Source of the DNA: an uncultured virus (IMG/VR IMGVR_UViG_3300020148_000038)
Lineage: Duplodnaviria > Heunggongvirae > Uroviricota > Caudoviricetes
IMG/VR virus record: IMGVR_UViG_3300020148_000038
Strand: one strand, 5' to 3'
DNA length: 20,000 bases
Both the position numbers and the translations under genes were made by a program. Positions within the stretch are counted from its first letter, which is position 1, and every line of letters begins with the position of its first letter. The notes beneath the pieces were generated by a model. That model had not been told where the DNA came from. It did no database searches and saw only the letters and a program-made list of their open reading frames with translations. Shown here one piece after another: positions 2 through 15,753 of the stretch.

Positions 2-403
2 TAATCTAACCAAACCCGTCTCTCTTCCATCTCGCGAAGATACTGTGGCGTTAATCCATCCGCCAGGTTCTCCAGCGCTATGCAGTCTGACCGTTTCAAG
101 GTCTATATCATGTAAACGATCTATATCGCTCCAGTCATAGGCTTTATTTCTGGATACAATCTCTCGCATTATCCGTGGTATAGACAATCCTTCTGGACAT
201 TCACTCAATCCACATCCGACTACGTTGTGTTTTCTACTTTTGCAGATTTTGGGTTCAAGCCTGTTCTGAATAAGTGCGTTCTTGTCGTGTAACAGCCCGC
301 TGTTGTCAACGTTTACAACCCTATTATTGGTTTTTCGGGAGATGTTCTTCCATACATGAGTGAACTTACCGTTCTTGTCTATGATGGGAACCCGAGTGGA
401 CAT
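2..403 (-). CDS. DKNG-tag protein 1 (partial, runs off window start; absent from ORF track)
   Basis: ATG at 403, GGAGG RBS upstream, 2 nt after the stop of the 406..1026 gene. My translation is MSTRVPIIDKNGKFTHVWKNISRKTNNRVVNVDNSGLL...CKSRKHNVVGCGLSECPEG..., open to the window edge. Confidence 0.9.
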   Translation of the reverse strand, partial: MSTRVPIIDKNGKFTHVWKNISRKTNNRVVNVDNSGLLHDKNALIQNRLEPKICKSRKHNVVGCGLSECPEGLSIPRIMREIVSRNKAYDWSDIDRLHDIDLETVRLHSAGEPGGWINATVSSRDGRETGLVRL

Positions 404-405
404 GT

Positions 406-1026
406 TTACCCTCCGACGAGGAATTCGTAATCTTTGTTGTTTCCAATGAACTCTCTGAATTCAGCGGTTTGCTTCTTAACGCTATCAAACATCTTGGTTA
501 CGCGATGCATTTCGTCATAGTCGCTCATATCGAAGCCTACTTCGCTGGCTAGCTCTTGTGGCGTCCGACAGTTGTCGGATATGGAGGCGTCGAGAATCAA
601 GGAGTGAAGAACGTCTTCGACAGTTGGAACCGTATCAATAGCAAGTCCAGTGCTGTATGGAATCTGAATCTCTTTGTTGTCGTCATTCGTAAGGGTGATG
701 ATAAACTTGTTTTGTAATATGTTCTTACCAACATTATCTGTATAACGCTGTCCTATGTAATAAGCCGAACCGGTCACCCCGAGCCTTTTGGATACTTTTT
801 CGATCCTAAAAGTTTCTCCGTCTGAGTATGAACCTTTAGGGAGCATCGGAGTTGAACTCTCTGGTTGTAAATCAGCGATATTGGTGACGGTTCTATTCTC
901 TTGGTGCCCGGTATTTGGAACGGCCGACACCATCTTTTTCACTCCGACTTTTGGCTCGGCGCGTTTATGTACAGTGGTCTTACGTCCGTTCTTGTCTATG
1001 ATTTGGGTGGGTACGAGGTTTGACAT
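406..1026 (-). CDS. DKNG-tag protein 2; C-terminal phage-type hypothetical domain
   Basis: Start refined to ATG 1026 (AAGGAG RBS). Begins MSNLVPTQIIDKNGRKTTVHKR; C-terminal region PTVEDVLHSLILDA...ELASEVGFD. Confidence 0.88.
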   Translation of the reverse strand: MSNLVPTQIIDKNGRKTTVHKRAEPKVGVKKMVSAVPNTGHQENRTVTNIADLQPESSTPMLPKGSYSDGETFRIEKVSKRLGVTGSAYYIGQRYTDNVGKNILQNKFIITLTNDDNKEIQIPYSTGLAIDTVPTVEDVLHSLILDASISDNCRTPQELASEVGFDMSDYDEMHRVTKMFDSVKKQTAEFREFIGNNKDYEFLVGG

Positions 1027-1048
1027 TGGGATGCTCCTTAACAATGTT

Positions 1049-1070
1049 ACTATACAACGAGGGTGTGACC
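1049..1070 (-). promoter_or_regulatory. Class II promoter GGTC-N12-TATAGT
   Basis: Minus strand GGTC (1070-1067), 12 nt, TATAGT (1054-1049); no -35 at 17 nt spacing. Confidence 0.7.
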
Positions 1071-1091
1071 TCATTCGAATAGAGTTTCTAA

Positions 1092-1982
1092 TTAGCAACC
1101 GTAACGAGATCCGTATGCATTAGCGCCCGCTTCAAGTTCCTCTCTGTTGTAGATTACGCCGCCTTCCATATCAATCATTCCATTCACCCATTGATAATAG
1201 TGGTAGGACTCATGTGCTATGGCCGTTCTGACTTTACAATCTGGTCTGTTGAGCCAAGCTGGAGTGATAATAATGTAGTTGTCTCCTGGGTAATAACATG
1301 CAACGCCAATAGGACAATACGCAATAACTATTGGTGGTACGTAAATAGAAATACCTTGACTCAGCCTTGCTAATCTGTCCGCCTGAGATGCGTCCGGGAC
1401 TCGCCCTGACCCCCGCGCAGCCGCCTCACGCGCCGCTGCTTCCGCTTCCTCCTTGGCTATTCTGTCGTTCTCGCTTTTGACTATTTTCTTGAAGCTTTCG
1501 ATTTTCTCTTCTAACGGCGGAATTTGTTCGTCCACCCACAGCGTTACTTCGGATTCCCATTCTTCCACGGTTTCCTTGGTGACAATCGAGTGCCAAACTT
1601 GGAGTCTTTGGGATGGTTCTATTTCGTAGATATCATCCAATTGGTCAACTTGCTCTTTTATTTCCTCGGCAAGAGATGTCATTTCCTTGGTTGGATTTGC
1701 CCCAGCTTTTCCGTGATCTGCGTCGAGCACGTCTGTTATGTTTTTAATTTCCAATTTCAGCCTAGAGTCTTCATCACGCAAGAAGGACTCAATTGACTTC
1801 TTTAGCTCTTCGTGCTCTTTATTGGCTTGCCGTATCTGGTTTTCTGTTCTGTGTATGCTTTCCATATATCTAGAATTCAGGCTGTCAACTTCGCTGTCAG
1901 ACGGCACCCTCATGTCAGATACGAACATGAGTCCTAATGTTGGAATTATTAACAAGCTGATAATACGAACAAAGTTTTTCAT
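1092..1982 (-). CDS. Secreted/membrane-anchored coiled-coil protein with C-terminal HExxH zinc metallopeptidase-like domain
   Basis: Hydrophobic N-terminus, long helical coiled-coil, AIAHESYHYYQ motif, downstream ELEAGANAYG. Confidence 0.75.
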   Translation of the reverse strand: MKNFVRIISLLIIPTLGLMFVSDMRVPSDSEVDSLNSRYMESIHRTENQIRQANKEHEELKKSIESFLRDEDSRLKLEIKNITDVLDADHGKAGANPTKEMTSLAEEIKEQVDQLDDIYEIEPSQRLQVWHSIVTKETVEEWESEVTLWVDEQIPPLEEKIESFKKIVKSENDRIAKEEAEAAAREAAARGSGRVPDASQADRLARLSQGISIYVPPIVIAYCPIGVACYYPGDNYIIITPAWLNRPDCKVRTAIAHESYHYYQWVNGMIDMEGGVIYNREELEAGANAYGSRYGC

Positions 1983-2029
1983 TATGGGTTGACGTTAGCA
2001 AAGATTCGTGATGAATGGGATAACTTTGA

Positions 2030-2485
2030 CTATTTTAGTCCAAAAATATATTCGCCCGATTCTGGGTCATCTCGTATTTGAAGAGTAAAGTATTCATCTC
2101 CCCTTAATATCGCTGCTGCGTATCTGTGGTTTCCGTCGATTAAAGGGTGAAGGTTAAACAGGTGTTTCTCTACACTGAATATGGGAAGGTGCCAATCGTC
2201 TTCGCACTGGACGCCATTGTGATAAAACCACGCCACCCTATTGATGTGGTATTGCCTAACTTCATTAGAATATCCTTCTAGATCAACTCCACAATATTCC
2301 TTGGATGATGCCTCAGCAAGCGGAACAGACCTAACCTCTTCTTCAGTGAGAACATCACCGCCCCAAGTCGGGTAAATAAAAGCGCTAGGAATGATAGACT
2401 TCAGTAAAGAAACCCGAACCTTGTAAATGTTGTGAGATAACCTAATGGCATCTTCAGTGGTTGGTTTATCTGTTCGTGTTGACAT
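2030..2485 (-). CDS. ParB/Srx-like domain protein
   Basis: LIDGNHRYAAAILRG motif. Start refined to ATG 2485 (leaderless, 7 nt after a -10). Confidence 0.7.
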   Translation of the reverse strand: MSTRTDKPTTEDAIRLSHNIYKVRVSLLKSIIPSAFIYPTWGGDVLTEEEVRSVPLAEASSKEYCGVDLEGYSNEVRQYHINRVAWFYHNGVQCEDDWHLPIFSVEKHLFNLHPLIDGNHRYAAAILRGDEYFTLQIRDDPESGEYIFGLK

Positions 2486-2492
2486 CGCTGGG

Positions 2493-2521
2493 ATAATAAA
2501 ACATCTCGGTCTAAAAATCAA
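2493..2521 (-). promoter_or_regulatory. SigA-type promoter TTGATT-N17-TATTAT (leaderless)
   Basis: -35 at 2521-2516, -10 at 2498-2493, ATG at 2485. Confidence 0.7.
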
Positions 2522-3363
2522 CCAGAGATAATCTCTAGCACGTCGTTATCGACTTTAGCCCATTCCCTCAACCTGAATGGATTCTTTTCGTGAGCGGCTA
2601 CATCAACAATTGCATCAAAGTCCAGCCTGAAGAGGCGAACCATAATCAACCATATCCACAGGGGAGGGAAGTTGTGGTCTTGGCGCGCCCTGTTTCTGAT
2701 GTAGTAGAAGACCCAGAGGATGAATTGTCTGTTTCCGATTCTGCGATACAGTCGGACATTCGCTGCGTTGATGTCTTCCCATAGTTCACGCCCTATATAG
2801 TGTTGCCGCGAGATGATTTCGGCGGCTTCTCCAACCGTAATGCGCTCGTTATAGAAATGGGTTTTCATAGAAAGCGTTGAAAGCAACAACGGGGTAAGTC
2901 TTCCCTCTTGAGAGAGAATTTTGATTAAGTCGTCTTTGTTACAAGAGATCAACCTATGTGGTTTTTTAACCGAGCTATTTCCATATTTACTATGACCCAG
3001 ATGTTGAAGTCCTGGACTATAAATCGTATCTTTGTATTTCAGCCACATTCCGACAAAGAAAGCAGCCAAATCCAAATCCTCTGCGTCATTGATGCTGGTT
3101 AGTCGTGAAATTTGATACGGCGAAGACTCCCTGAATTCGGATTTTTCAACCTCTGTCAAATCGGAAGCTTTAAGAAATCTTTCAAATTGGGTTTGAGTGG
3201 GGAGTGACCAATAACTAAAATTTGAAAATGGTATGCGGCATTGTTCGATATCTCGGTAACGCCCGTCTTGGGAGGGGTCAACCCATTCCAAGAATTTAGA
3301 TATTGGCTCGATGCTGTCTTCTAGTGATTTATCTATAACTAGGCTTCTTTTTGGAAAGCTCAT
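2518..3363 (-). CDS. Hypothetical protein, probable paralog of 8990..9781 (C-terminal motif family)
   Basis: 281-aa ORF with ATGA overlap to the upstream lipoprotein gene. C-terminus WLIMVRLFRLDFDAIV...KVDNDVLEIISG. Confidence 0.8.
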   Translation of the reverse strand: MSFPKRSLVIDKSLEDSIEPISKFLEWVDPSQDGRYRDIEQCRIPFSNFSYWSLPTQTQFERFLKASDLTEVEKSEFRESSPYQISRLTSINDAEDLDLAAFFVGMWLKYKDTIYSPGLQHLGHSKYGNSSVKKPHRLISCNKDDLIKILSQEGRLTPLLLSTLSMKTHFYNERITVGEAAEIISRQHYIGRELWEDINAANVRLYRRIGNRQFILWVFYYIRNRARQDHNFPPLWIWLIMVRLFRLDFDAIVDVAAHEKNPFRLREWAKVDNDVLEIISG

Positions 3364-3800
3364 CTCATTTTCGATTCAAGCGTGGGGAGTAGGATATCTT
3401 GCTCCGGCTGGAATAGTTCGTACTCTTCTATAGAGTTGAACCTTTTTAAACTCGGACTTTCTGATGACTTGGCATATACCACCCCGCCATCGCCATATTT
3501 AGCTGCCACGATATAATGGTTTCCGTCAGCAGACGCGGTAGTGGCTACTTGGATGCCGGTGGGAATCACAACGGAGAAAGATGCGTCAGATGTTATTTCG
3601 ACAATGCTGCCCGCATATCTTCCGTTTTTATCACGAAAATAAGTTTGAGCCGCCGCGAAATCAATCACCGTGTTTTTAACAAGCTGTTCAGTAGAAACAG
3701 TCTCCACTGGCGTCGGGTTTGGCTCTCGGTGTTCACTACATCCAGTTAAGAGGAATGCAGACCCTATTATTACCGCTGCCGCTACTACTTTCTTGAACAA
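3360..3800 (-). CDS. Lipoprotein with pilin-like soluble domain
   Basis: Lipobox LLTG-C21 after a basic/hydrophobic signal. DFAAAQTYF...YIVAAKYGDGGVVY resembles the 11865..12359 protein. Confidence 0.7.
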   Translation of the reverse strand: MFKKVVAAAVIIGSAFLLTGCSEHREPNPTPVETVSTEQLVKNTVIDFAAAQTYFRDKNGRYAGSIVEITSDASFSVVIPTGIQVATTASADGNHYIVAAKYGDGGVVYAKSSESPSLKRFNSIEEYELFQPEQDILLPTLESKMR

Positions 3801-3858
3801 CTTAAACTCTTCCGTCTTTTATTGCAATAAGCAATTTGATATAAGGTAATCTTATTGT

Positions 3859-4782
3859 ATGTCCCGCGTCTTTTCAAGTATATTTTCGCGCCTATTTTTG
3901 GCGACGGCGCTGGTTATGCCGTTTTTGGCATTCGCCCTTCCTGCCCAAGCATCTGTGGATGAATCAGCAGTGATGTTTGAATCTATTAATGACGAAAGGC
4001 AGTCTATAGGGCTTGAACTTTTGGAAGAAGATCCGCAGTTGAATGATGTCGCGCAGTCGTGGGCATTACAGATGTCTGAAGACGGTGAAATGTCTCACAA
4101 CCCGAACTATTCAAAGCAGATTCCGTCTGGATGGGAGGCTTCGGGAGAAAATGTTGCATATGGGTATCCTGATGGTGCGACCACTGTAGCAAATTGGATG
4201 CAATCGGAATCCCATAGAGAAAATATTCTTGGTGACTATACCCATGTTGGAACAGGTTGGGTGATGGACGATATGGGTACGAGTTGGGCTGTTCAGGTAT
4301 TCGCTAAATACCCTGTGGGAGGTATTGGAGAACCTGTTAAAAATGAAGGTGGATCTCAACCTGCTTCATCCGATCCCGTCGAGACTTCGCAAGGGGTTTC
4401 TGGTTCCCATTCAAAGAGCAACGCTTCTGAAAGCTCTACTACCACCACCACCACCGAAATCCCTGAGACTGAGACAAGTTCTAGCAAGAAGCGTTCTGCC
4501 GAACCGGGTGACATGATTGTAACCATTAAGGATGATGATGTCGATTCTGCATACTTGTCGCTTTTGGTTGTTAGTTGGCTTCTCGCCGCAGTGGTGGTTT
4601 TATTGTCTGTTGTCTGCTTCGTGCATTTCAGAATCATCAAAGGACGCACTCCGATACTGAGCAACAGAACGTCGTCTTCTCACCCAGAACAATCGTTAAC
4701 CAAGATGGTGCAAGACATTACAGCGAAGAATCGTGAATCCGTGCTAGAAAAACACACGAACTTGTTTTTAGATGACAAGTAG
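3859..4782 (+). CDS. CAP/SCP domain surface protein (signal peptide, Ser/Thr linker, C-terminal TM)
   Basis: INDERQSIGL...LNDVAQSWA..MSHNP...GENVAYG...WMQSESHRENIL..YTHVGTG...WAVQVF. Leaderless start 6 nt after TAATCT. Confidence 0.9.
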   Translation: MSRVFSSIFSRLFLATALVMPFLAFALPAQASVDESAVMFESINDERQSIGLELLEEDPQLNDVAQSWALQMSEDGEMSHNPNYSKQIPSGWEASGENVAYGYPDGATTVANWMQSESHRENILGDYTHVGTGWVMDDMGTSWAVQVFAKYPVGGIGEPVKNEGGSQPASSDPVETSQGVSGSHSKSNASESSTTTTTTEIPETETSSSKKRSAEPGDMIVTIKDDDVDSAYLSLLVVSWLLAAVVVLLSVVCFVHFRIIKGRTPILSNRTSSSHPEQSLTKMVQDITAKNRESVLEKHTNLFLDDK

Positions 4783-4798
4783 CACGCGCTTTAGTTGT

Positions 4799-4827
4799 TT
4801 GACAATAAAATGGTTTTGTAATAGAAT
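4799..4827 (+). promoter_or_regulatory. SigA-type promoter TTGACA-N17-TAGAAT
   Basis: Near-consensus hexamers with a 17-nt spacer upstream of 4859. Confidence 0.85.
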
Positions 4828-4858
4828 GCAGACAACTAAAAGATAGGGTTGATTCATA

Positions 4859-5452
4859 ATGAGTAAGCGCGAACCGATTTTCGGTTTGGATTTGGACGGT
4901 TCTGCTCTGGATTACGTGAGCGGACTTCGCGATGCCATCGCTGCCAGCAAGTCCATTTCCCCTGAAGACGCCCTTCGTTTGATGCCAGCCCCGACAAACT
5001 ATGACTTCTCAGACTGGCATGCGGTTATCGGTAACGAATTCAAGAAGTATCACACTGAAGCTGTTACTAATGGACTTTATGCTCGACTCAAGGCTTTCGA
5101 TAACGCATCCGATGTGTTATGGCGACTTTCGGACGAGGGGATTCACATCCGGGTTATCACCAGCAGATTCGTAAGGCACGGTCAGAACAGCATCGTGATC
5201 GCCTCGACTGGCGAATCTCTTGATATCAACAATATCCCCTACCGCGATATTGTTTTCACCGCCCACAAGACCGATATTTATGCAGACTTCTATCTTGAAG
5301 ATTCGCCTGCGAACATCATTTCTTTGAGAGAGAATGATGGTGATGTCATCATTTACGATGCCCCGTACAATCAGGATCTAGACGGCGACCGCGCGTATAA
5401 CTGGATGGACGTTTATGGGCTTGTAAAGAAGAGGATGGAGCTTTATGTCTAG
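4859..5452 (+). CDS. HAD-superfamily 5'(3')-deoxyribonucleotidase (NT5C-like)
   Basis: GLDLDG motif I, VITSR motif II, K..IYADFYLEDSP motifs III/IV, APYN..WMDV tail. Confidence 0.85.
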   Translation: MSKREPIFGLDLDGSALDYVSGLRDAIAASKSISPEDALRLMPAPTNYDFSDWHAVIGNEFKKYHTEAVTNGLYARLKAFDNASDVLWRLSDEGIHIRVITSRFVRHGQNSIVIASTGESLDINNIPYRDIVFTAHKTDIYADFYLEDSPANIISLRENDGDVIIYDAPYNQDLDGDRAYNWMDVYGLVKKRMELYV

Positions 5453-5987
5453 GCGCGCCCAGAGCATTCATAACATGCTTGTTATTTGGGCTATGGGAGG
5501 ATTGCCCGTGGCGCTCGTGTACGCTCTTGGCACAAAACAGTGGTTAGGGGCTTTTGCAATTCTGTTCCTTTGGTTTTCAGCGTTCTTGATTGCAAGTTTC
5601 TTGGTGCATAAACTCTCCAAGAAGGAGAAGGTTGTTAATCGTTCGGTTGATACTCTCCTGAGCGGAGTTGATCGCAAAAAGTATAAGTTGCTCGATAGTT
5701 TGTATATGAACTTTACAGCAACAGCAAACAACGCGATTTTCTTTGTTATTGGAGCGATGATTGTTCTTGGTTACGCGAAGCAATCAAATGAATCGTCCGC
5801 GTATCTTGTTGTTGTAATTTCTTTAGTGCTTGCTCTCGCTCTTGTTATTTCTTCGGCATGTTTCTTAGTGTTTTATCGAATTGGCGTCAAGAATAACCCC
5901 GCCGAAAGCTCAGCACTTGCCAACCATTCTCCTGATGAGCGCACAAAGATTCGTCATTACTTTGCAGATAATGCCATCAAGTTCTAG
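5445..5987 (+). CDS. Integral membrane protein (about 4 TM)
   Basis: Four hydrophobic segments; overlaps the upstream stop; GGAG RBS. Confidence 0.8.
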   Translation: MSRRAQSIHNMLVIWAMGGLPVALVYALGTKQWLGAFAILFLWFSAFLIASFLVHKLSKKEKVVNRSVDTLLSGVDRKKYKLLDSLYMNFTATANNAIFFVIGAMIVLGYAKQSNESSAYLVVVISLVLALALVISSACFLVFYRIGVKNNPAESSALANHSPDERTKIRHYFADNAIKF

Positions 5988-6013
5988 ACTTTTAGATTTT
6001 CTTATGTTATGAT
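5985..6013 (+). promoter_or_regulatory. SigA-type promoter TAGACT-N17-TATGAT
   Basis: 17-nt spacer and TG extended -10. Confidence 0.55.
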
Positions 6014-6117
6014 TCCCGCATGAACATTTTCTACTAGGTTCCGTATTTGGATTCCGGATGACTCCTGCTTGCCTTCAAATTTCGCAAACAAGACATCTAC
6101 TCAGAAAGGAATCCAAA

Positions 6118-6687
6118 ATGTCTAAGAAAGAATTCACGCATCCCCTCCATCAGAGGGCTATCAGCTTCCTCTTGAAGAAGTTTCCCACAGTTGACAAATC
6201 CAATGTCGATGATTTCGTTCAATTGGTTTTCGAGCAGATCGGTATTCATTCCAAGCAGAGTGTTTATGATTTGTTGCAAGAACAATATGACCATGAGCAA
6301 GTTCTTATGAAGCGGATAAGGAAGGCAGCCGAGGTGGTCTGGAATACCAAGAGAAAGTTCATCGGTGATGCCTTCCCAGAAGAGTTGGAATGGGTAAACA
6401 AGCAGATTGTCAAGGTAACAAAGGGTGAAGACGACAACATCAAGATCTTCGCTTTAAACGGAAGCGGACGACTGCGCACCTATATCATGCCGGAATCTTT
6501 CCTTCTTAACGACCCTATTGTTGTGGCTCAGTTCACGCGCCGCTCTATCCGCAACACAAGGGAATCCATCGCTGCGAACGAGGTTAAAGATTTGAAGTTC
6601 AAGCTCGAATTGCTACAGGGTCAAATCGCTAAAGCCGAGGCTGAACTTGCCGACCATCAGGAGAGGTTGGCGTTATTGAGCAAATAA
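6118..6687 (+). CDS. Hypothetical protein with C-terminal coiled coil
   Basis: Start refined to ATG 6118 (AAAGGA RBS); followed by a terminator hairpin. Confidence 0.8.
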   Translation: MSKKEFTHPLHQRAISFLLKKFPTVDKSNVDDFVQLVFEQIGIHSKQSVYDLLQEQYDHEQVLMKRIRKAAEVVWNTKRKFIGDAFPEELEWVNKQIVKVTKGEDDNIKIFALNGSGRLRTYIMPESFLLNDPIVVAQFTRRSIRNTRESIAANEVKDLKFKLELLQGQIAKAEAELADHQERLALLSK

Positions 6688-6697
6688 CACACAATAT

Positions 6698-6746
6698 ATA
6701 CAGCCCACATGTGTACTGCTACGTCATATGTGGGCTGTATTATTTT
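6698..6746 (+). terminator. Intrinsic terminator
   Basis: ATACAGCCCACAT / ATGTGGGCTGTAT stem followed by TATTTT. Confidence 0.75.
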
Positions 6747-6757
6747 CGTGGTAAGGT
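6736..6757 (+). promoter_or_regulatory. Class II promoter TGTA-N12-TAAGGT (leaderless)
   Basis: -10 at 6752-6757 is 6 nt before ATG 6764; one mismatch to TGTC; no -35. Confidence 0.55.
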
Positions 6758-6763
6758 GGTAAC

Positions 6764-7456
6764 ATGTCAAATCTGGTCAGGACTCCTGTTGTTGATGTCA
6801 ACGGGAAAGAAACCCACGTTTGGCGTTCTCCTGAACAAATAGGCGTAGCGCCTCAAAGGAATATCCCGATACCCGCCGCCAAAGTCTTGTCCGCCAGAGA
6901 AAAACTTCTTGCCGAGGATGTTGGCTGGGAACAAATGCCCCTCCCCTTAAGATGCGAGCACATCTACGACTGCGTAATAGATTTGCTGACAGAACACGAA
7001 ATTCACCATGAAGAGGACGGAGACAATTATTGGTACGTCAACTTTAATAACAATACCCATATCGTCGGCAAATGCGATTTTCATAAATTGACTATCTATT
7101 TTTCTAGAGAATTGATATCCGCCGCAACCTATGAACAGGCTATTGATGTAGCACTACACGAGGTGGCTCACGCTATCGCTGGTCCTTATGCTAGACACGG
7201 TGAAGTCTGGAAGGAGGTCGCACGTTCGTTAGGAATGAAAGATCCTGGTCATTCGACCTCCGTAGAGATAAAACGGAAGAGTAACGGCAAAACCTCTGTG
7301 GGCGATATTTCGTTGGGAGACGTTTTAGTAACTCCACGCGGGGTGAAGCTCACCGTTATAGAGTTTAAGAGGACAAGGTTGGTTGCTGAATCCCCGACCG
7401 GAGATAAATATTCTGTTTCCATCGATTATGCATCGAAAATCAAGAAGAGGGACTGA
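6764..7456 (+). CDS. DKNG-tag protein 3; SprT-like zinc metalloprotease with a small C-terminal beta domain
   Basis: MSNLVRTPVVDVNGKETHVWR; GKC...I.FS...ALHEVAHAIAG...HGEVWKEVARSLG is typical of SprT-like proteases. Confidence 0.85.
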   Translation: MSNLVRTPVVDVNGKETHVWRSPEQIGVAPQRNIPIPAAKVLSAREKLLAEDVGWEQMPLPLRCEHIYDCVIDLLTEHEIHHEEDGDNYWYVNFNNNTHIVGKCDFHKLTIYFSRELISAATYEQAIDVALHEVAHAIAGPYARHGEVWKEVARSLGMKDPGHSTSVEIKRKSNGKTSVGDISLGDVLVTPRGVKLTVIEFKRTRLVAESPTGDKYSVSIDYASKIKKRD

Positions 7457-7515
7457 TTTTCTTATTGTTGTTTGACGGTTTGATATCATCATGTGAATCG
7501 TAAAGGCAACTAATT

Positions 7516-8514
7516 GTGGAACAACCTAAAGACGAGTTTGATTTTTCGTATGATACGACCAACGACCCATTCAAACCATTAAGCAGGTCCGAGTCCGAAA
7601 GGGTATATCAACAACAGCAGTATTTTGCAGAACAGAATAAAGCGCCTTACGTTCAGATGCCTGCTACCACTATCAACTATTCGACAGCTTCAACAGGTGG
7701 TAAGGCTGTAACAATCACCATATTTTCGATACTTGGTGGTGTGGTACTGCTCCCTTTGATAATAACTCTGCTTTTGGCCGTGTTCATCATCCCAGGTTCA
7801 TACAATCCTGTCGATGATGACACGCCAACCCCATCACCCAGCTATATAGATGATTTCGGTGTTTTGGTGGAACCGGACTATGTATATTCTTATGAAATCG
7901 ACCCATTTACATCAAGTGATTATGTTCATCACTCTTACCCTTCGCGTAACGACGCTATTGAAGAGCTATGGAAGTCTGGTGAAAATTGGTTGGAAGCGCC
8001 CGAGTCAGAAGAGCCTCTATCAGATTTTTATCCGGGATATCCAGATGTCAATGAGTATTTGAATGAGGTAACAACCGGTAATGCACAGGGTGTTCATGTG
8101 GTTGTTTCTAGCGATCCTGAGTACAATTGTGGACTGCATAACGAATCTCCTGGCCCGGAAACCATTGCTGGTTGTTATGACCCAAGTTACGGCAATGTTA
8201 TTTTCATGTGGTGGGGTCCGGGGGTCAAATCAGATCTGAAGGTGTTAGAGCTATTCCATCAGTTCTCACATTACGCCGGTATCTGGGATAACTTCGACAT
8301 TTATTATTCGTTGTATCAAGAGCATCGGATCAATGATGAAGAAATTGGCGATTTGATAGAACGTGATGCTACTTGCAAGGTGTATATCGGTTGGAATAAC
8401 TCAACGCTTTCATACCTTGATTCGATATATCATGCACCATGTGGTTGGGCAGCAGAGTATTGGGATGCGCAATTCCTAGAATATGACTCTGATGTTGATG
8501 TCATGGACTGGTAA
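7516..8514 (+). CDS. Single-pass membrane protein with acidic extracellular, degenerate metallopeptidase-like domain
   Basis: TM segment near aa 65-93; AGCY...LFHQFSHYA...IERDATC, with HQxxH in place of HExxH. Confidence 0.75.
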   Translation: MEQPKDEFDFSYDTTNDPFKPLSRSESERVYQQQQYFAEQNKAPYVQMPATTINYSTASTGGKAVTITIFSILGGVVLLPLIITLLLAVFIIPGSYNPVDDDTPTPSPSYIDDFGVLVEPDYVYSYEIDPFTSSDYVHHSYPSRNDAIEELWKSGENWLEAPESEEPLSDFYPGYPDVNEYLNEVTTGNAQGVHVVVSSDPEYNCGLHNESPGPETIAGCYDPSYGNVIFMWWGPGVKSDLKVLELFHQFSHYAGIWDNFDIYYSLYQEHRINDEEIGDLIERDATCKVYIGWNNSTLSYLDSIYHAPCGWAAEYWDAQFLEYDSDVDVMDW

Positions 8515-8903: not shown

Positions 8904-8909
8904 AAGAGC

Positions 8910-8967
8910 ATTCTATCTTGTTCACGTTGTTAAGTCAATTGACCAATATGTCGAACTATGGTAAAGT
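8910..8967. promoter_or_regulatory. Back-to-back divergent SigA promoters
   Basis: Minus strand TTGACT(8938-8933)-N17-TAGAAT(8915-8910); plus strand TTGACC(8939-8944)-N17-TAAAGT(8962-8967). Confidence 0.85.
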
Positions 8968-8989
8968 TGTTTTAGGAAAGAGGTGGTTT

Positions 8990-9781: not shown

Positions 9782-9806
9782 CCGTCTTCCCAACGATAGC
9801 TATGGG

Positions 9807-9828
9807 TGTCAATTGCCCATGTTAGAAT
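9807..9828 (+). promoter_or_regulatory. Class II promoter TGTC-N12-TAGAAT (leaderless)
   Basis: TGTC 9807-9810, TAGAAT 9823-9828, ATG at 9835; no -35. Confidence 0.8.
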
Positions 9829-9834
9829 CGTTAC

Positions 9835-10362
9835 ATGAACAACTTAACGCCAACCCCAATCGTTGACAAGAACGGCAAGAGGACAACCGTACACAAACGC
9901 ACCGATTCTGCTCGCGGTAATTCAAATAGAAGTATCCCCAAGCCGAAGCGTCCGAAGAACCCGATAGATATAGTTGAGTCCTCCCTGAAGCGTTCCAAGG
10001 TAAAGATGTCCGCCTCGTCCACTTTTGCTGTTTTGCGTGTGTTGAGTAATCCGACAGAAGATAGATTTGACCGTGTTGTTGATGTGGTCAAAAGGGAGTA
10101 TGGTGTAAACGATTCTCGCGCGACTAAGATTACCGAGTTCCTTTTCAGAGATGCTGGACTCAAGATGGAGAAAAAAGTAATTCCATATTCCGATATCTTG
10201 CAGAAAGCATCTCTTGATATGATTTCGCGAAGCCATAAGAAGAGGTATGTTTCCGAAAAGGAACAAACGGTACAGCGCGAAGAAAAGCAGAATGATGCAC
10301 CGACGACCCAAGAACCGTCCATCCTTGATATGGTGAATCAAATGCTGCAACAGCAGGATTGA
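9835..10362 (+). CDS. DKNG-tag protein 4, basic helical protein
   Basis: MNNLTPTPIVDKNGKRTTVHKR followed by a basic linker. Confidence 0.88.
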   Translation: MNNLTPTPIVDKNGKRTTVHKRTDSARGNSNRSIPKPKRPKNPIDIVESSLKRSKVKMSASSTFAVLRVLSNPTEDRFDRVVDVVKREYGVNDSRATKITEFLFRDAGLKMEKKVIPYSDILQKASLDMISRSHKKRYVSEKEQTVQREEKQNDAPTTQEPSILDMVNQMLQQQD

Positions 10363-10365
10363 CGA

Positions 10366-10394
10366 TTGCTTTTCCAACAATTTTAGACTATAGT
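10366..10394 (+). promoter_or_regulatory. SigA-type promoter TTGCTT-N17-TATAGT
   Basis: 17-nt spacer upstream of the YqeY-like gene. Confidence 0.6.
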
Positions 10395-10427
10395 TATTCT
10401 TCTGTAAAAAGATAGAAGGGTAATGTT

Positions 10428-10937
10428 ATGGGTTTGAAAGAAGATTTAAAAGCAGCCTCCATCACCGCTCTCAAGAGCAAGGACAAGACGGCACTTGACA
10501 CCTTGCGATTGGTGCTTGCTGAGTTTGAAAAGAAGGAGAAGTCTGGCAAGGCTCCGGTAGTTCTGACCGAGGAAGAGTCTGTTCAGCTTTTACAGTCCGA
10601 GGTCAAGAAGCGCAAGGGAACCATCGAAGAGCTTACCGAGAACACCCGTTCCGAGTTCGAAGCAACAGGTTCTCGTCCCGCCCGCATCACAGAGAGAATC
10701 GACCGCGAGAACGCCGAGATTGCCGTACTGAAGCAGTTCCTCCCAGAAGAGGTTTCGGCAGACGAACTTGGCACTATCGTTCTGGTTGCAGCCAACAAGC
10801 TGAGTGCGGAGAACGGCGAACTCAGCATGCGTGACATGGGTACGTTGATGAAGCTTGTCAAGGAGTCTCTGGGCGGAAGACTTGCTGATGGCAGAGTGCT
10901 GAGCGATTTGGTGAAGAGCGCGATTACCGCCGCTTAA
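10428..10937 (+). CDS. GatB/YqeY domain protein
   Basis: LKEDLK.A..ALKSKDK..LDTLR...EVKKRK...E.AEIAVLKQFLPEE.S..EL...MRDMGTLMK.V...LADGRVLSDLVK. Confidence 0.9.
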   Translation: MGLKEDLKAASITALKSKDKTALDTLRLVLAEFEKKEKSGKAPVVLTEEESVQLLQSEVKKRKGTIEELTENTRSEFEATGSRPARITERIDRENAEIAVLKQFLPEEVSADELGTIVLVAANKLSAENGELSMRDMGTLMKLVKESLGGRLADGRVLSDLVKSAITAA

Positions 10938-10975
10938 CCGAAGGATTAAACAGCTTCGGACACAGTTAAGTGTTG

Positions 10976-11018
10976 GACGGCTCTGGATATAAAAGTCCAG
11001 AGCCGTCTTCGTGTTTTC
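10976..11018 (+). terminator. Intrinsic terminator
   Basis: GACGGCTCTGGA / TCCAGAGCCGTC 12-bp stem with a T-rich tail. Confidence 0.8.
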
Positions 11019-11065
11019 TGAACGCTTCCTGTGTATTCTTGGAAAGAACCATTTAGCGGACAGAC

Positions 11066-11087
11066 TGTTACATATCAAGAGTAAAAT
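11066..11087 (+). promoter_or_regulatory. Possible class II promoter TGTT-N12-TAAAAT
   Basis: Same spacing as class II, one mismatch; upstream of the 11147 gene. Confidence 0.45.
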
Positions 11088-11146
11088 TGTATAGCACATG
11101 GAGAATAGACTGCTAAGGCGGTTTCTAAGGGAAGGGGAAGTTTTCC

Positions 11147-11782
11147 ATGAGCGCTATATTAGAAAAGAACGCTCTTGTTTACGACGAGAGCGAGTTATTA
11201 AGAGACGAAGAGTTAGAAAGAAGCGAAGATCTAATTTCTTACGCAATGCAAAATCAAATTCTATCTGGAGAAACAGTCATATCGTTAGAAGACGAGTTCA
11301 GACGCATATTGGAATCAAACGACATTAGGTTACAGTTGTCTGGTGATGCAAGAGTCGATGATTACGCCGACGAAACAATTATTTTGCCTGTTACCGGGGG
11401 TTATGTATCAATACGAAATGTTGATGACGGCGGAAGCGTAATGGATATAGAGCATATCGGATCTGGAATCAAGCTGTCTAATGGAGATAAGTCCCTAGAG
11501 TTAGATAACTTCGAGTTCAATTCGGTAGAGTCTACAATGAGAGCCGACCCTTTGATAGAGGGTCACGGAAACCCATTATCCATGACTGGTCCAATACCTA
11601 ACATATTCGATGTGGAGAATCTGGTCGCTGGCACCGAAGGAGACGCATTGGATACGCGAGCCGATCTTGTTCTTTCGGAAGAGGGTTGTCTATTGCTCAA
11701 AAGGGCTTTATTGATAGATGAGCTAAGTCCTGGGCTTTTGGTTGGACAAGTCCGCTTGACCGCTTTAGGTGATACTACATAG
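11147..11782 (+). CDS. Acidic beta-rich hypothetical protein
   Basis: AAGGGGAAG RBS; 211 aa. LPVTGG...IEHIGSGIKLS...LELDNF...PGLLVGQVRLT looks like actinobacterial hypothetical proteins (from memory, unverified). Confidence 0.75.
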   Translation: MSAILEKNALVYDESELLRDEELERSEDLISYAMQNQILSGETVISLEDEFRRILESNDIRLQLSGDARVDDYADETIILPVTGGYVSIRNVDDGGSVMDIEHIGSGIKLSNGDKSLELDNFEFNSVESTMRADPLIEGHGNPLSMTGPIPNIFDVENLVAGTEGDALDTRADLVLSEEGCLLLKRALLIDELSPGLLVGQVRLTALGDTT

Positions 11783-11798
11783 TCTGTCTTCGTACCTA

Positions 11799-11839
11799 AT
11801 TTTGGGGGCATTGTCGATTAGTGATAATGTCCCCAAAAT
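11799..11839 (+). terminator. Hairpin / probable terminator
   Basis: ATTTTGGGGGCATTGTC pairs with GATAATGTCCCCAAAAT (two G-U pairs). Confidence 0.6.
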
Positions 11840-11864
11840 CGTATTTTGGTGCCAAAATATAGGC

Positions 11865-12359
11865 ATGAAGGGATTTTTGGCTAAAGGCGACCGCGCCGAG
11901 AACTCGATAATGCAGACTATCACTATAGCTGTATCGATTATACTTGTGGCTGCTGGGCTTCTCACTGCCCCAGGACTTATCAACAATGCCAGAGATAATA
12001 ATGCTAAAGGCGATTTGGCGATTATTGCATATGCTCAAGAATGGGCTTTATCAAACACCTATTTGTATTACGAAAACATCGAGAAGGGACAACCCGACTC
12101 CCTTTACGACAAAGTTTATGGCGTGGAACTTTCAACCGGAATCAAATACAGTCTTTCGGGAGGAACTACAAATAGGGCAGCGTTGGTATGCAATATCGGT
12201 GAAGATTCTACATCGGCTTACCTACTTAGAGCAGAATCCACTTCAGGTAAGGTGTTTTATCGAGCTTCTAAGTCCGCCGAGATATCGGAGAATCCTGCCG
12301 ATTTGGATATAGATGTTTGCATCCTTTCGCGTGATGACTATGACGACTTTATTTTGTGA
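11865..12359 (+). CDS. Type IV pilin-like protein
   Basis: Start refined to ATG 11865. Short charged leader, hydrophobic helix ending in P, then INNARDNNAKGDLAIIAYAQE, typical of the pilin alpha1-C helix. The canonical G|FxxxE site is absent. Confidence 0.65.
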   Translation: MKGFLAKGDRAENSIMQTITIAVSIILVAAGLLTAPGLINNARDNNAKGDLAIIAYAQEWALSNTYLYYENIEKGQPDSLYDKVYGVELSTGIKYSLSGGTTNRAALVCNIGEDSTSAYLLRAESTSGKVFYRASKSAEISENPADLDIDVCILSRDDYDDFIL

Positions 12360-12365
12360 TTAAGC

Positions 12366-12387
12366 TGTCGCCACCATCATGTAACCT
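12366..12387 (+). promoter_or_regulatory. Class II promoter TGTC-N12-TAACCT (leaderless)
   Basis: TGTC 12366-12369, TAACCT 12382-12387, ATG at 12394. Confidence 0.75.
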
Positions 12388-12393
12388 AATTGT

Positions 12394-13419
12394 ATGACAA
12401 ATACGGTAAGAACGCCGATTGTGGACAAAAACGGTAAGTTCACTCACGTTCACAAAAAGCTGTTAAGTGATGTTTCATACAGGGTATACAACGAGAAACC
12501 TTCCAAATGGAAACAACTTTCTGAAGGGACGAGAGCTTCCCAAATCCTCAACGATGAGATGAAGCGCTCTTTTGGATTCGCGTTATTCTCGCAGTTGTTG
12601 GATAACGCCCGCAACGACCGCGACTTCTTTGGAAAAAGAAGGACGATTATCAATAATCGCAAGACCGCAGAATTCATTGATGGGATAACCTCTTCAATGA
12701 AGCTCAAAGAGAAGAACGAAAATCCGTTGGGACGGAAATTAAGATTCGCTCGTTTGCACAAGCTGCTGAATAGCGGTCCTTATATAGATGAGATTCAAGA
12801 GATCCTGAAATATAACCCCGCTGCGATGGACAATTTCAGATCGGAAATGTTGGTCGGTGGAGCAGTAGCGCTCGAATTGCGCCCTGGTAGAGCTTTGGCA
12901 TGCCAAGATGAATATATAAACCATCCTCAAAGAAGGCGAGATCCCTATATGTTGAGGACGTTGTTCGCGCACAACGAAGTCCTCAACGCCCTCTTCGGAA
13001 TCGATGGGTGCTTCACCCTAGAAGATTTTGACCAATACATAGAAAGACGAAACACCGCTCCGCTTTATCTTTTCCCTTCTCAAAACACCCATTACAACAA
13101 CTTTGACGAGTTTAATGTACGAGAAATAATCGAATGGTCTTATTCTCTTGTTGAAGATCCACAAAACACGCTCGATTGGGTTGCTTTTGTGGCAGATGCT
13201 AGCTCGCATGGTGACGATGTGTTAGTCGGACACTACAAACATTATGCTGTCGAAAGACTTATCCTCAGCGTACCATTTGAACGGTTCAATAAGTATGCTT
13301 CGGTTTCTTCATTCCCATTAGATACTAAAGAAATATTGGCTGCTATTGAAAATGGTATTGACCCGGACGTTTACGCCCAAACTGTTCGTTCAGCCGAAAA
13401 TAATAACCCACCAAGATAG
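12394..13419 (+). CDS. DKNG-tag protein 5, also carrying the C-terminal motif
   Basis: Begins MTNTVRTPIVDKNGKFTHVHKK; near its end LDTKEILAAIENGIDPDVYAQTV. Confidence 0.88.
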   Translation: MTNTVRTPIVDKNGKFTHVHKKLLSDVSYRVYNEKPSKWKQLSEGTRASQILNDEMKRSFGFALFSQLLDNARNDRDFFGKRRTIINNRKTAEFIDGITSSMKLKEKNENPLGRKLRFARLHKLLNSGPYIDEIQEILKYNPAAMDNFRSEMLVGGAVALELRPGRALACQDEYINHPQRRRDPYMLRTLFAHNEVLNALFGIDGCFTLEDFDQYIERRNTAPLYLFPSQNTHYNNFDEFNVREIIEWSYSLVEDPQNTLDWVAFVADASSHGDDVLVGHYKHYAVERLILSVPFERFNKYASVSSFPLDTKEILAAIENGIDPDVYAQTVRSAENNNPPR

Positions 13420-14127
13420 AGAGCTAACCACAGTAAATAACACCACTGCCGGGTTAAAGAAAAGAGATAGAAGCATTGTGGCAACTGCCCACACCCTGCC
13501 TCTTTTCTTGAATGTTCCGATAAGACCAATCAGGAATGGAATCGCTGTGCTCGCTAATATGCAGATGATGAAACCCAGCCTGAATTCTTGATATTCACTG
13601 GTCATATGCAGCAATGCCGATAGCGAATCAACTAGAACCGAAATGTTAGAGATGTTCCAATTCTGACCAATGCTTTCTTGCAGCATGTCAAACAGGTATT
13701 GGCTGGATGCGTATACGGCTACCCCGGCAACGGCCACATAAGATATCAAATAGCTTATGAAGGCCGTACCTCCTACACTTGTAAATCTCGTGTTGGATTG
13801 CTTGAGAGTTGCTTCTTTCTTGAGATGTTTGTACTCTTCGCGTGAAAGTTCTTTGCTCTTGTACGATCTTTTGAGGTTGCGAAGAGAATAGATATCCTTT
13901 TCCCGCTTCGTTCTTCCCGTCTTCTTCGGGGAAGGGTCTTGGGGCTTAAGTTCGTTCGATTCCATAACAACGTCCGCAACATTTTCAGTTTCAACGCGGG
14001 CGGGTTGTGGCGCTCTATGAGGAACCAATTCATGTTTTGGTCTTGTCTTGTCTGTCCATCTTTCGCCGTCCCAATAACGCGCTAACTCTGGGTTTTGCGG
14101 ATCGGGATACCAGGAAGCTGTAGGCAT
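13390..14127 (-). CDS. DUF2510 domain membrane protein
   Basis: N-terminal ASWYPDPQNPELARYWDGERWTD (DUF2510, mainly Actinobacteria) and 3-4 C-terminal TM segments; GGAG RBS. Confidence 0.88.
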   Translation of the reverse strand: MPTASWYPDPQNPELARYWDGERWTDKTRPKHELVPHRAPQPARVETENVADVVMESNELKPQDPSPKKTGRTKREKDIYSLRNLKRSYKSKELSREEYKHLKKEATLKQSNTRFTSVGGTAFISYLISYVAVAGVAVYASSQYLFDMLQESIGQNWNISNISVLVDSLSALLHMTSEYQEFRLGFIICILASTAIPFLIGLIGTFKKRGRVWAVATMLLSLFFNPAVVLFTVVSSLSWWVIIFG

Positions 14128-14155
14128 TGCTTATCTCTCCAATAAAATCCTGGGG

Positions 14156-14184
14156 AGTTTACATGTTCTATCCCGTTTAGTCAA
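14156..14184 (-). promoter_or_regulatory. SigA-type promoter TTGACT-N17-TAAACT
   Basis: -35 at 14184-14179, -10 at 14161-14156. Confidence 0.8.
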
Positions 14185-14192
14185 GCAGTTGG

Positions 14193-14214
14193 TGTCTCAC
14201 ATGAATGATAAAAT
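14193..14214 (+). promoter_or_regulatory. Class II promoter TGTC-N12-TAAAAT
   Basis: TGTC 14193-14196, TAAAAT 14209-14214, then AAAGGAG RBS and ATG 14233. Confidence 0.78.
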
Positions 14215-14232
14215 TTGAGCCAAAGGAGAATT

Positions 14233-15273
14233 ATGTCAAACCCAAATCTTCAGCCTAAGAGAATAGTCAGGTCGGACGGAGTAGAGACGACTGTTTATGT
14301 CAACCCGAACAAGAATCGAAAGTCAAACGATAGAGTGATCTCATCAACCCAAATGGCTTCATCGGTAACTGAATCTGATAATGGCAAATCTGTAGTTGAT
14401 GAAGTTATCGCATCCATTAAAAATTTGAAGAGTGTATCGCTCACTTACGTTGATTACCGCGATAGCCTAGATGATGATAAAGATGCTGTCAGCATGTTCC
14501 TCGCTGGCGATCTAGATGGTCTTAACGAAAGAGTTTTCGGCAATTATGACGATTTCGATAACCGCATGGAAAGCATCGTGAGTTATGCAAACGAAGAATT
14601 ACGTGAATACGATATGGACTGGAACGATCTTGATTACGACGAACAGGACGAGATAAGGTTCGCGTTAGAAGAAAAAGACGACTCCGATGTTTTGGGTCAA
14701 TTGATTCGCAACACAGGAGTAAAACTGGTTACTTACGATATTGAAAGCGTTACGGATGCTATTGAGAAATATTGCACCGACGACAATGGCAATGTAGATG
14801 ACGAAATGGTGAATAGGTTAACCTGGGGCAATTATGACAACTTCGATGAACGAACCGCCTTTGTTAAGGACTACATGGGTAAACTCGGTTTCGATACCTC
14901 ATCAGAAGGATTCGACAAGAGTGCGCATTCACTTGTTGCCAACGGAGCGTATGATTGGCATAGTGGGGTTCAGATGGGATTCATATTTACGGCAGATATA
15001 GAAGATGTAAATGTGGGTATATGGAGTGAAGAGCAACAGAGAACTTTGGACGAAAGAGAGATATCGTTCTCGCAAAATGCATTCTTCGGTATGATTGACA
15101 GGTTTAACGGCTCTGGTATGCTCGAAGAATTTCCAACGGGAAATGAAGTGAAGATAACAGCCACTAAAGAGAAGCCAATCCAGTTAGACTCAAACACTGG
15201 CGGTTACGGATGGGATGAAATAGTTGGCGGATCTACATCACTGAACGTTTCACTGAAATCCGAATGGAAGTAA
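14233..15273 (+). CDS. DKNG-tag protein 6 (variant tag), highly acidic protein
   Basis: Start refined to ATG 14233. Begins MSNPNLQPKRIVRSDGVETTVYVN; body is very D/E rich. Confidence 0.85.
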   Translation: MSNPNLQPKRIVRSDGVETTVYVNPNKNRKSNDRVISSTQMASSVTESDNGKSVVDEVIASIKNLKSVSLTYVDYRDSLDDDKDAVSMFLAGDLDGLNERVFGNYDDFDNRMESIVSYANEELREYDMDWNDLDYDEQDEIRFALEEKDDSDVLGQLIRNTGVKLVTYDIESVTDAIEKYCTDDNGNVDDEMVNRLTWGNYDNFDERTAFVKDYMGKLGFDTSSEGFDKSAHSLVANGAYDWHSGVQMGFIFTADIEDVNVGIWSEEQQRTLDEREISFSQNAFFGMIDRFNGSGMLEEFPTGNEVKITATKEKPIQLDSNTGGYGWDEIVGGSTSLNVSLKSEWK

Positions 15274-15279
15274 AATTCA

Positions 15280-15753
15280 TTAGCTTCTGAACATGCTTTC
15301 TACAAGTTCTGCCATGTCAGATTCTACCTGGATTTTATCCCTGCTATATGTTCCACAATTGCAGCTTAATATTACGCTTGTGTTGATGTTGTGTGATTGC
15401 GCGTCAGCGTCAAAAGTATTGAATACGTATTCGCTTTCAATGTCTTCATAGACCGACCATACATCCGAAATACCACATTTCTCGATGTGCAAAGATCTCT
15501 CGGTTCTTTTTCTCGGCTGGAAAAATCCGACAAACTCAGTGTCTTGCTTCACAACGGCATCCGCAATTCTGAATGCATAATCTCTAAACCATTCCGGTTT
15601 GCCCTGGAAATATGTATTCTCTTCTTCACGCGCGGGCTTTTTAGAGATGTTTCGCTTATGCGTTTTGGATTCATCTACTTTTCTATACACGGTGGTTTGT
15701 TTGCCGTTCTTGTCTACTATCTTGGTCGGTACTGTGTTTGCCCCAGCCATCAT
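15280..15753 (-). CDS. DKNG-tag protein 7
   Basis: Start refined to ATG 15753/15750 (GAGAGGA RBS). Begins MMAGANTVPTKIVDKNGKQTTVYRK; H...C...CxC could bind metal. Confidence 0.85.
   Translation of the reverse strand: MMAGANTVPTKIVDKNGKQTTVYRKVDESKTHKRNISKKPAREEENTYFQGKPEWFRDYAFRIADAVVKQDTEFVGFFQPRKRTERSLHIEKCGISDVWSVYEDIESEYVFNTFDADAQSHNINTSVILSCNCGTYSRDKIQVESDMAELVESMFRS

Follow-up and report, generated by a model that had tools for sequence, protein, structure and literature searches.

In a 20,000-nucleotide stretch of the uncultured virus record IMGVR_UViG_3300020148_000038 (IMG/VR, Caudoviricetes), hereafter called the window, seven open reading frames (ORFs) with unrelated bodies begin with the same short peptide, which is centred on a DKNG turn and followed by a flexible linker. 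This N-terminal tag belongs to a known class, that of address tags and trafficking modules, but is itself undescribed. We propose, at a little under an even chance, that it is a docking tag for the co-delivery of soluble effectors with the DNA of the element that encodes it. The best-sampled relative of the window's element is G001 (IMGVR_UViG_3300034069_002177; 202,737 bp; IMG/VR class 'provirus'), in which 17 genes are tagged.

The seven ORFs that the sequence-only reading had pointed out are all present, and a 20-residue hidden Markov model (HMM) of the tag, trained on 120 relatives from outside the window, recovers these seven and no others from the six reading frames of the window, with E values from 2.7e-14 to 1.5e-9. 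Each match lies directly after the start codon, the eighth-best match has E = 0.92, and chance is excluded for the sevenfold occurrence. The seven ORFs are the following (aa, amino acids; E values are those of the HMM unless another source is named).

Tagged ORF 1, positions 2-403, minus strand: N-terminus MSTRVPIIDKNGKFTHVWK; E 4.9e-11; cut by the window edge; full-length form P0007, 326 aa; the tag is the first ~40 codons, 284-403.
Tagged ORF 2, positions 406-1026, minus strand: N-terminus MSNLVPTQIIDKNGRKTTVHKR; 206 aa; E 1.5e-12; body belonging to phrog_4273 (function unknown) and to a tagged family of 7 members.
Tagged ORF 3, positions 6764-7456, plus strand: N-terminus MSNLVRTPVVDVNGKETHVWR; 230 aa; E 2.5e-11; body a SprT-like zinc metalloprotease (Pfam PF10263, 1.3e-7, residues 93-160).
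Tagged ORF 4, positions 9835-10362, plus strand: N-terminus MNNLTPTPIVDKNGKRTTVHKR; 175 aa; E 2.7e-14; body of no known family, with 34% identity over 127 aa to the tagged G001 protein 111664.
Tagged ORF 5, positions 12394-13419, plus strand: N-terminus MTNTVRTPIVDKNGKFTHVHKK; 341 aa; E 1.1e-12; orphan body.
Tagged ORF 6, positions 14233-15273, plus strand: N-terminus MSNPNLQPKRIVRSDGVETTVYV; 346 aa; E 1.5e-9, although its tag IVRSDGVETTVYV is the most divergent of the seven; strongly acidic body (-13.6 net charge per 100 aa).
Tagged ORF 7, positions 15280-15753, minus strand: N-terminus M(M)AGANTVPTKIVDKNGKQTTVYRK; 156-157 aa; E 3.6e-13; orphan body.

The consensus of the seven copies reads M-x-N-L-V-P-T-P-I-V-D-K-N-G-K-x-T-T-V-[HWY]-[KR], in which Gly, Thr, and Val are invariant. 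Because synonymous codons differ between the copies, this conservation is at the level of the protein and not of the DNA, as had been claimed beforehand: where two window copies share a residue, the same codon is used in only 69 of 181 comparisons (38%), the invariant Gly is encoded by GGT, GGA, GGG, and GGC, and the mean nucleotide identity among the seven tags is 53%. By BLASTP, each of the 7 bodies belongs to a family of its own, no two of them matching at E<=1e-5, in agreement with the unrelated cargo that had been described, and apart from the SprT-like and phrog_4273 bodies none has a family in Pfam or PHROGs. The window itself has a GC content of 41-48% over its 20 kb, and no near-identical DNA is present among 50,697 phage or 72,556 plasmid records, in which tblastn searches with ORF 5 and with a 30-aa tag also returned nothing useful, the 30-aa query having little power. 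If a 494,976-bp contig is taken as the window's own, which the count assumes, the element carries at least 16 tagged genes, namely 15 on that contig and the SprT protein.

Among 120 relatives, the columns of the tag are strongly conserved both from the first strand to the turn (P107, T113, P102, I111, V95, D119, K108, N119, G120) and after it (K112, a variable position, T119, T113, V120, H89/Y21, K97/R21). About 8 variable polar residues further on comes a second motif, R-x(0-1)-[VLIM], located 15-18 residues past the Gly in 155 of 225 tagged proteins, so that the R-x-[IV]-[PS] motif recognised in the window copies is real; the linker is enriched 2.9-fold in Pro and also has Ala and Ser in excess. 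The strand-turn-strand hairpin and the basic linker suggested from the seven N-termini are both supported, the linker being flexible and Pro-rich. AlphaFold2, run on an alignment of 24 tags, places strands at residues 4-10 and 16-22 on either side of the DKNG turn (predicted local distance difference test, pLDDT, 84-91), and the model of the full-length P0002 (ORF 2, 7-sequence alignment) comprises the hairpin at 4-22, a linker at 25-44 with pLDDT<50, and a folded body at 57-206. The hairpin is thus predicted to be a separate, tethered element, since in the P0002 model the disordered linker divides it from the confidently modelled body. In terms of charge, the tag is basic (+3.8 in 45 aa) and the bodies are mostly acidic (-7.5 net per 100 aa). 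Comparison of the P0002 model with the PDB gave no fold match at E<=1e-3, with template modelling scores of about 0.2, and in the ESM Atlas the tag gave no usable feature match, the structures returned being generic hairpins. Position counts behind the tag likewise revealed no conserved Glu and no cleavage site of the L/I-x-E type, the sole fixed feature there being the Arg motif.

Outside the window, the tag is widespread in uncultivated elements. A word-indexed profile search with the seven tags, which returns longer proteins and favours sequences near the consensus, found 137 proteins; among the 120 matches listed, the core lies at residue 7-13 in 115, at 17-19 in 4, and at 31 in 1. A word-free HMM search, in which 24 tags from the window and G001 were compared with 1.84 billion cluster representatives, extended the family to 834 clusters at E<=1e-3, 40 of them at E<=1e-10. 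The confinement to residues 1-30 that had been expected was found in these relatives: among the best 150 of the 834 clusters, the match begins at residue 1-17 in 147. The three exceptions are P0181, a junk repeat, P0123 (770 aa), which has one N-terminal and two internal copies of the tag, and P0173 (990 aa), which has two internal copies. P0123 and P0173 look like fused tagged modules and might represent a link between single tagged effectors and polyvalent proteins. Copies at internal positions are easier to reconcile with a docking module than with a secretion signal of the classical type. At the DNA level, a strict back-translated pattern occurs in 108 stretches of metagenome contigs, the longest contig measuring 231 kb, and one contig often has several of them. 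In 185,579 species genomes it matched only once, that single match being a chance look-alike, namely a pair of Ig-like strands at the C-terminus of a secreted protein from a metagenome-assembled genome. By this pattern, the tag is essentially absent from cellular genomes. Its novelty, also part of the sequence-only reading, stood up as well: no family of Pfam, NCBIfam, or PHROGs covers it, the string VDKNGK occurs only in unrelated papers within the freely accessible full-text literature, and the accessible literature on jumbo-phage capsid targeting, polyvalent proteins, and giant extrachromosomal elements contains no description of it.

The cargo of this tag is diverse: BLASTP sorts the bodies of 224 tagged proteins into 104 families, of which 62 are singletons. 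The proteins are small (median 242 aa), and a transmembrane-like segment is found in 1 of 226 tagged proteins versus 47 of 157 untagged G001 ORFs. A Pfam match at E<=1e-3 is absent for 138 of 150 bodies. The bodies that do have one include three GmrSD_N domains, a SprT-like protease, LPD29, an ADP-ribosyltransferase (ART), and LRV repeats, while an ArdA match stays just below the cut-off; in addition, precomputed annotation places NUDIX in six tagged proteins, and the tagged cargo of G001 comprises ArdC-N with MPTase-PolyVal, GmrSD_N, and DUF7007. Judged by these domains, the bodies that can be named, ~10% having any Pfam match, represent the same set of functions as polyvalent proteins and anti-restriction systems. 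In the accessible text of Iyer et al. 2017 (PMC5512222), it is argued that proteins of the polyvalent type accompany the DNA into the new host, either out of the capsid or through a type IV secretion system (T4SS).

A subset of the tagged genes also appears to be co-regulated, as judged from upstream sequences. In G001, the motif TGTC[GA]N-N10-TAnnnT lies <=80 nt upstream of 11 of 17 tagged genes versus 3 of 224 untagged genes (Fisher p = 1.3e-12, a value inflated by the derivation of the motif on these same genes), and one of the three untagged genes encodes a 926-aa pilin-like protein of the pilus cluster. The canonical TTGAC-N17-19-TAnnnT pattern shows the reverse distribution, with 0 tagged and 11 untagged genes. 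When a position weight matrix (PWM) trained on the G001 sites was applied to the window as an independent test, the two best-scoring sites of the window were both found just ahead of tagged genes.

Promoter-like site, positions 9807-9828, plus strand: TGTCAA-N10-TAGAAT, 5-6 nt before the ATG of ORF 4; 17.5 bits, the window's top score.
Promoter-like site, positions 12366-12387, plus strand: TGTCGC-N10-TAACCT, 5-6 nt before the ATG of ORF 5; 14.0 bits, the window's second score.

In 20 shuffled sequences, the highest PWM score was 16.4 bits and the mean of the top scores 12.5. Since the site ends only 5-6 nt before its ATG, the ORF 4 transcript is probably leaderless, and the start of ORF 5 looks leaderless as well; the other five tagged genes of the window have ordinary Shine-Dalgarno-like leaders. 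Leaderless transcripts are a habit of Actinomycetota-type hosts, and the spacing of about 10 bp between the upstream box and the -10 element is reminiscent of the activator-dependent middle promoters of T4. Untagged genes of the window have canonical TTGACn-N17-TAGAAT sites at 4799-4827 (plus strand), 8910-8938 (minus strand), and 18605-18633 (plus strand); at the starts 8903 (minus strand) and 18640 (plus strand), 6 nt lie between the -10 element and the start codon, and these transcripts are probably leaderless too.

As regards the nature of the element, the window is tied to G001-type elements because both have a pilin-like N-terminal module in common, which in the window is found on an untagged ORF and recurs on 5 proteins of G001.

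Pilin-like ORF, untagged, positions 11769-12359, plus strand: contains AENSIMQTITIAVSIILVAAGL; E 5e-42 to 1e-12 to G001 proteins.

This second shared module consists of a pilin-like leader and a hydrophobic helix (AENSIMQTITIAVS) and is followed by differing C-terminal parts. In G001 it is present on the proteins encoded at 31065-31574, 31728-32288, 6775-8343, 81954-83537, and 113359-114231, one of which carries BNR/Sortilin repeats; two of the genes directly follow those for PilB, PilT, PilC, and prepilin peptidase.

The gene content of G001 combines several sets. Replication and metabolism are represented by a Pol III alpha-like polymerase, clamp, clamp loader, helicases, ligase, ribonucleotide reductase, GyrA, RtcB, and NAMPT, and 64 tRNA genes together with a transfer-messenger RNA (tmRNA) gene form one 17-kb array; a type I-E CRISPR-Cas set, WhiB, and HA domains are present as well. 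Also encoded are PilB-, PilT-, and PilC-like proteins, a weak prepilin-peptidase match, an FtsK/SpoIIIE-like protein of 1,030 aa, and a 920-aa AAA_10 ATPase of the VirB4/HerA type; their link to the tag is circumstantial. Homologues of this ATPase are encoded on the 494,976-bp contig (85% identity) and on an 805,269-bp contig (90%). It has no match among the 50,697 phage records, and the comparison yielded only three actinobacterial megaplasmids, with identities of 22-33%. Distant homologues are located on Curtobacterium and Euzebya megaplasmids of ~550 kb. Some of the homologues collected (P0228-P0255) reach 1,340-1,371 aa, and the 1,371-aa P0251 contains Hom_end and LAGLIDADG_3 homing-endonuclease domains, probably as an intein. 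PDB sequence searches with three large G001 proteins gave nothing informative.

No capsid, portal, terminase, protease, or tail gene was recognised in G001 by PHROGs (171 ORFs at 1e-5 and 62 at 0.01), and no virion gene by Pfam (75 ORFs) or NCBIfam (55 ORFs). As a positive control, PHROGs recognises the same gene classes in the tailed phage G002. The six-frame Pfam tests are weak in this respect, since PF03237, PF03354, PF17289, and PF05065 missed the terminase and the head protein of G002, the portal family PF04860 being the only virion family tried that scored there. Besides, G001 is perhaps a piece of a 0.5-0.8 Mb genome, its CheckV value of 96% being no proof of completeness. Taken together, these gene sets make G001 look like a cross between a jumbo phage and a conjugative megaplasmid, and instead of a phage it may be a giant plasmid-like element. 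The window's element should therefore not be assumed to be a phage either, and its description as one in the sequence-only reading found no support.

Several known systems place one N-terminal marker on many different proteins. The MIX and LXG-type domains are conserved N-terminal markers in front of numerous unrelated C-terminal effector domains and have been used as a handle for effector discovery. The DKNG tag resembles them as one marker on 104 body families (224 proteins), but those domains are larger, folded, and tied to type VI and type VII secretion systems, while the tag has no Pfam or NCBIfam match. The capsid-targeting sequence (CTS) of the T4 proteins IPI-III and Alt is likewise a short N-terminal peptide, common to unrelated cargo that includes ADP-ribosyltransferase and anti-restriction functions, with a detachable tether behind it; directly after the CTS lies the T4 prohead-protease site, L/I-x-E. 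The DKNG tag differs from the CTS in being longer (hairpin of ~20 aa, ~40 aa with the Arg motif), in having no sequence likeness to it and no cleavage motif of that type, and in its rare internal copies; no head genes were found in G001, which is possibly a fragment. For Alt, we follow a general statement in the accessible text of Iyer et al. 2017 (PMC5512222). With the polyvalent proteins treated in that text, the tagged proteins share ArdC-N, MPTase-PolyVal, LPD29, ART, NUDIX, and ParB/GmrSD-like domains. Polyvalent proteins are described there as having 2-15 domains per chain, and the DKNG-tagged proteins mostly have one body each, with P0123 and a protein of G002 as exceptions. The tag was not found in the accessible part of the same paper (PMC5512222), in which 'N-terminal motif' has 0 occurrences and the mentions of hairpins are unrelated.

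The G002 protein just mentioned is a polyvalent protein of 2,542 aa with NUDIX and Alt-like ART domains and with a tag-like hairpin at about residue 75, followed by an Arg and a Pro/Ala linker. Its gene has the portal gene on one side and the protease/major head genes on the other, in a genuine tailed phage. A 'MuF-like' identity, suggested by an HxxCRC motif for the ORF upstream of it, found no confirmation in Pfam or PHROGs and was dropped.

The proposed docking tag would be a portable module made of a two-stranded hairpin with a hydrophobic and a basic face, an Arg-x-[VIL] motif ~16 residues past the Gly, and a disordered Pro/Ala/Ser tether, fused N-terminally to a large and fast-turning-over set of soluble effectors in giant (0.2-0.8 Mb) uncultivated mobile elements. 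One shared partner, the alternative that the sequence-only reading also gave and that is kept here, would read the hairpin, probably by beta-strand pairing, and through this common reader more than 100 unrelated cargo families could be handled alike. Most likely, the purpose would be that the tagged proteins accompany the element's DNA when it enters a new cell, and there blunt restriction and modify host targets; separate tagged proteins would then do the job that one covalently fused polyvalent protein does elsewhere. What the data show directly is the build of the tag, its place at the N-terminus, selection on the protein, the diversity and repertoire of the cargo, and the co-regulation of a subset of genes; partner, delivery, and vehicle are the steps that we infer, and the vehicle, for which we lean towards the pilus/FtsK/AAA_10-type machinery of G001 over a capsid, is the weakest of them. 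Co-folding of the tag with residues 100-1030 of the G001 FtsK-like protein gave a score of 0.00, which counts neither way.

Several observations weigh against this proposal. The searches identified no partner gene for the tag. The tag is absent from G003 (322 kb, with an AAA_10 ATPase 38% identical), G004, and G005, and from the 546-kb Curtobacterium megaplasmid with a distant AAA_10 homologue; given its absence from G003 and from this megaplasmid, it is not tied to the AAA_10 family as a whole. The internal copies in P0123, P0173, and G002 indicate that a free N-terminus is not strictly needed. A Pfam match exists for only 12 of 150 bodies, and the curated cut-off is passed by 7 of these, so that the label 'effector' comes from a minority of the cargo. 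The special promoter precedes only 2 of the 7 tagged genes of the window. The link to capsid-packaged polyvalent proteins comes from one phage, G002, and a search with the N-terminal region of its polyvalent protein found only that protein itself. Finally, known T4SS signals are C-terminal or internal, and an N-terminal T4SS tag would be unusual.

Other explanations account for part of the same evidence. The tag could act inside the cell that carries the element, without any delivery, if its reader there were a chaperone, an inhibitor or immunity protein, a host hub, or a protease adaptor (making the tag a timed degron); potentially harmful effectors could in this way be restrained or directed to a single host target. 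Both the modularity of the tag and the co-regulation fit such intracellular handling, its internal copies suit binding rather than a terminal signal, and its absence from relatives that keep the transfer-like ATPase is readily accommodated; nevertheless, this explanation leaves the anti-restriction cargo of the kind co-delivered with DNA and the head-module position in G002 unexplained, and no candidate reader gene was found. We consider it unlikely, though still to be taken seriously. Routing into the virion head, as put forward in the sequence-only reading, supposes a huge phage in which the hairpin docks on the scaffold, portal, or inner capsid in the manner of T4 IPI-III and Alt, the cargo is injected, and the tag is perhaps clipped. 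Position and modularity match the CTS, the Alt-like ART and anti-restriction bodies resemble packaged proteins (according to the accessible text of PMC5512222), G002 has a tag-like hairpin on a polyvalent protein inside its head-morphogenesis module, and G001, classed as viral in IMG/VR, resembles huge phages by its 64 tRNAs, tmRNA, CRISPR-Cas, and replication genes. Against these stand the lack of virion matches in G001, itself perhaps a fragment, under a PHROGs control that is positive in G002, the want of a fixed cleavage site behind the tag besides the Arg motif, and an AAA_10 ATPase matched by actinobacterial megaplasmids instead of phages; the claim thus drew no support from the present data, and capsid targeting appears unlikely.

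A minimal nucleic-acid tether, in which the basic hairpin and the fixed Arg would bind the DNA or RNA of the element or of its host and concentrate enzymes there, is suggested by the basic tag on acidic bodies, by the conserved K, K, H, K, and K besides the fixed Arg, and by several DNA-related bodies (ArdC-N, GmrSD_N/ParB-like, SprT-like), DNA being moreover the one thing common to the tailed phage G002 and to G001 with its capsid-less look. The Arg motif also loosely recalls the SRGRI motif of Lsr2, but the tag is unlike any nucleic-acid-binding family of Pfam or NCBIfam, and an Lsr2-like reading was rejected after hhalign against the Lsr2 protein gave a probability of 0.35%. No need for DNA is evident in NUDIX, ART, or most orphan bodies, a single hairpin of two strands binds DNA weakly unless oligomerised, and the hydrophobic face (P-x-P-I-V / T-x-V) rather suggests protein docking; such a tether is held to be decidedly unlikely. 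Hardly credible, in our view, is the idea that the peptide has no function of its own and is a remnant of duplication or gene conversion, or a nucleotide-level start signal of leaderless mRNAs. It could appeal to the leaderless look of ORFs 4 and 5 and to the importance that 5' coding regions can have in leaderless mRNAs, but it is contradicted by the codon comparison, the synonymous sites being scrambled, by the persistence of the peptide across elements of 44% and 51% GC and across 834 clusters, and by the ordinary leaders of 5 of the 7 window genes.

A few further features of the window were recorded. Between the stop of the ORF at 6058-6687 and tagged ORF 3, an imperfect 29-nt inverted repeat (6685-6753, 76% complementary, core ACAGCCCACAT/ATGTGGGCTGT) could be a terminator or an operator. 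Three proteins of the HExxH type are encoded within the 20 kb: the SprT-like tagged protein (6764-7456, plus strand), a membrane-anchored coiled-coil protein with AHESYH (1092-1982, minus strand), and a protein with AHEAGH and a weak Peptidase_M50B match (18640-19521, plus strand). An untagged cluster of exported or membrane proteins (3859-4782, plus strand; 3360-3800 and 13390-14127, minus strand) includes a CAP/SCP-domain protein with a C-terminal anchor, a lipoprotein with an LTGC lipobox, and a DUF2510 protein with transmembrane segments. Rfam detected no family in the window, and DNA nearly identical to the window is present in three public runs labelled ant metagenome, from three studies, one of which may be its source; no RNA run is listed as containing it.

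In practical terms, the ~40-residue HMM is a sequence handle that pulls out the effector arsenal of little-known elements of 0.2-0.8 Mb, an arsenal of 834 protein clusters of which about nine in ten have no known domain and in which the named members point to anti-restriction and host modification. The G001-type element is itself worth a follow-up of its own. If the tag is a delivery signal, it marks out the proteins that accompany the DNA and might be borrowed as a portable tag with which to load foreign proteins. In the most far-reaching version of the docking-tag proposal, which we regard as rather unlikely, the tag would be the substrate signal of a new protein-delivery route in giant, capsid-less, plasmid-like elements of Actinomycetota-type hosts, shipping more than 100 effector families with the DNA. 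Were this true, a type IV pilus and FtsK/HerA-type ATPases would be joined in these elements with replication, tRNA, and CRISPR genes of the jumbo-phage kind, and the tagged proteins would form a non-covalent counterpart of the polyvalent proteins, addressed by an N-terminal signal unlike any known T4SS signal.

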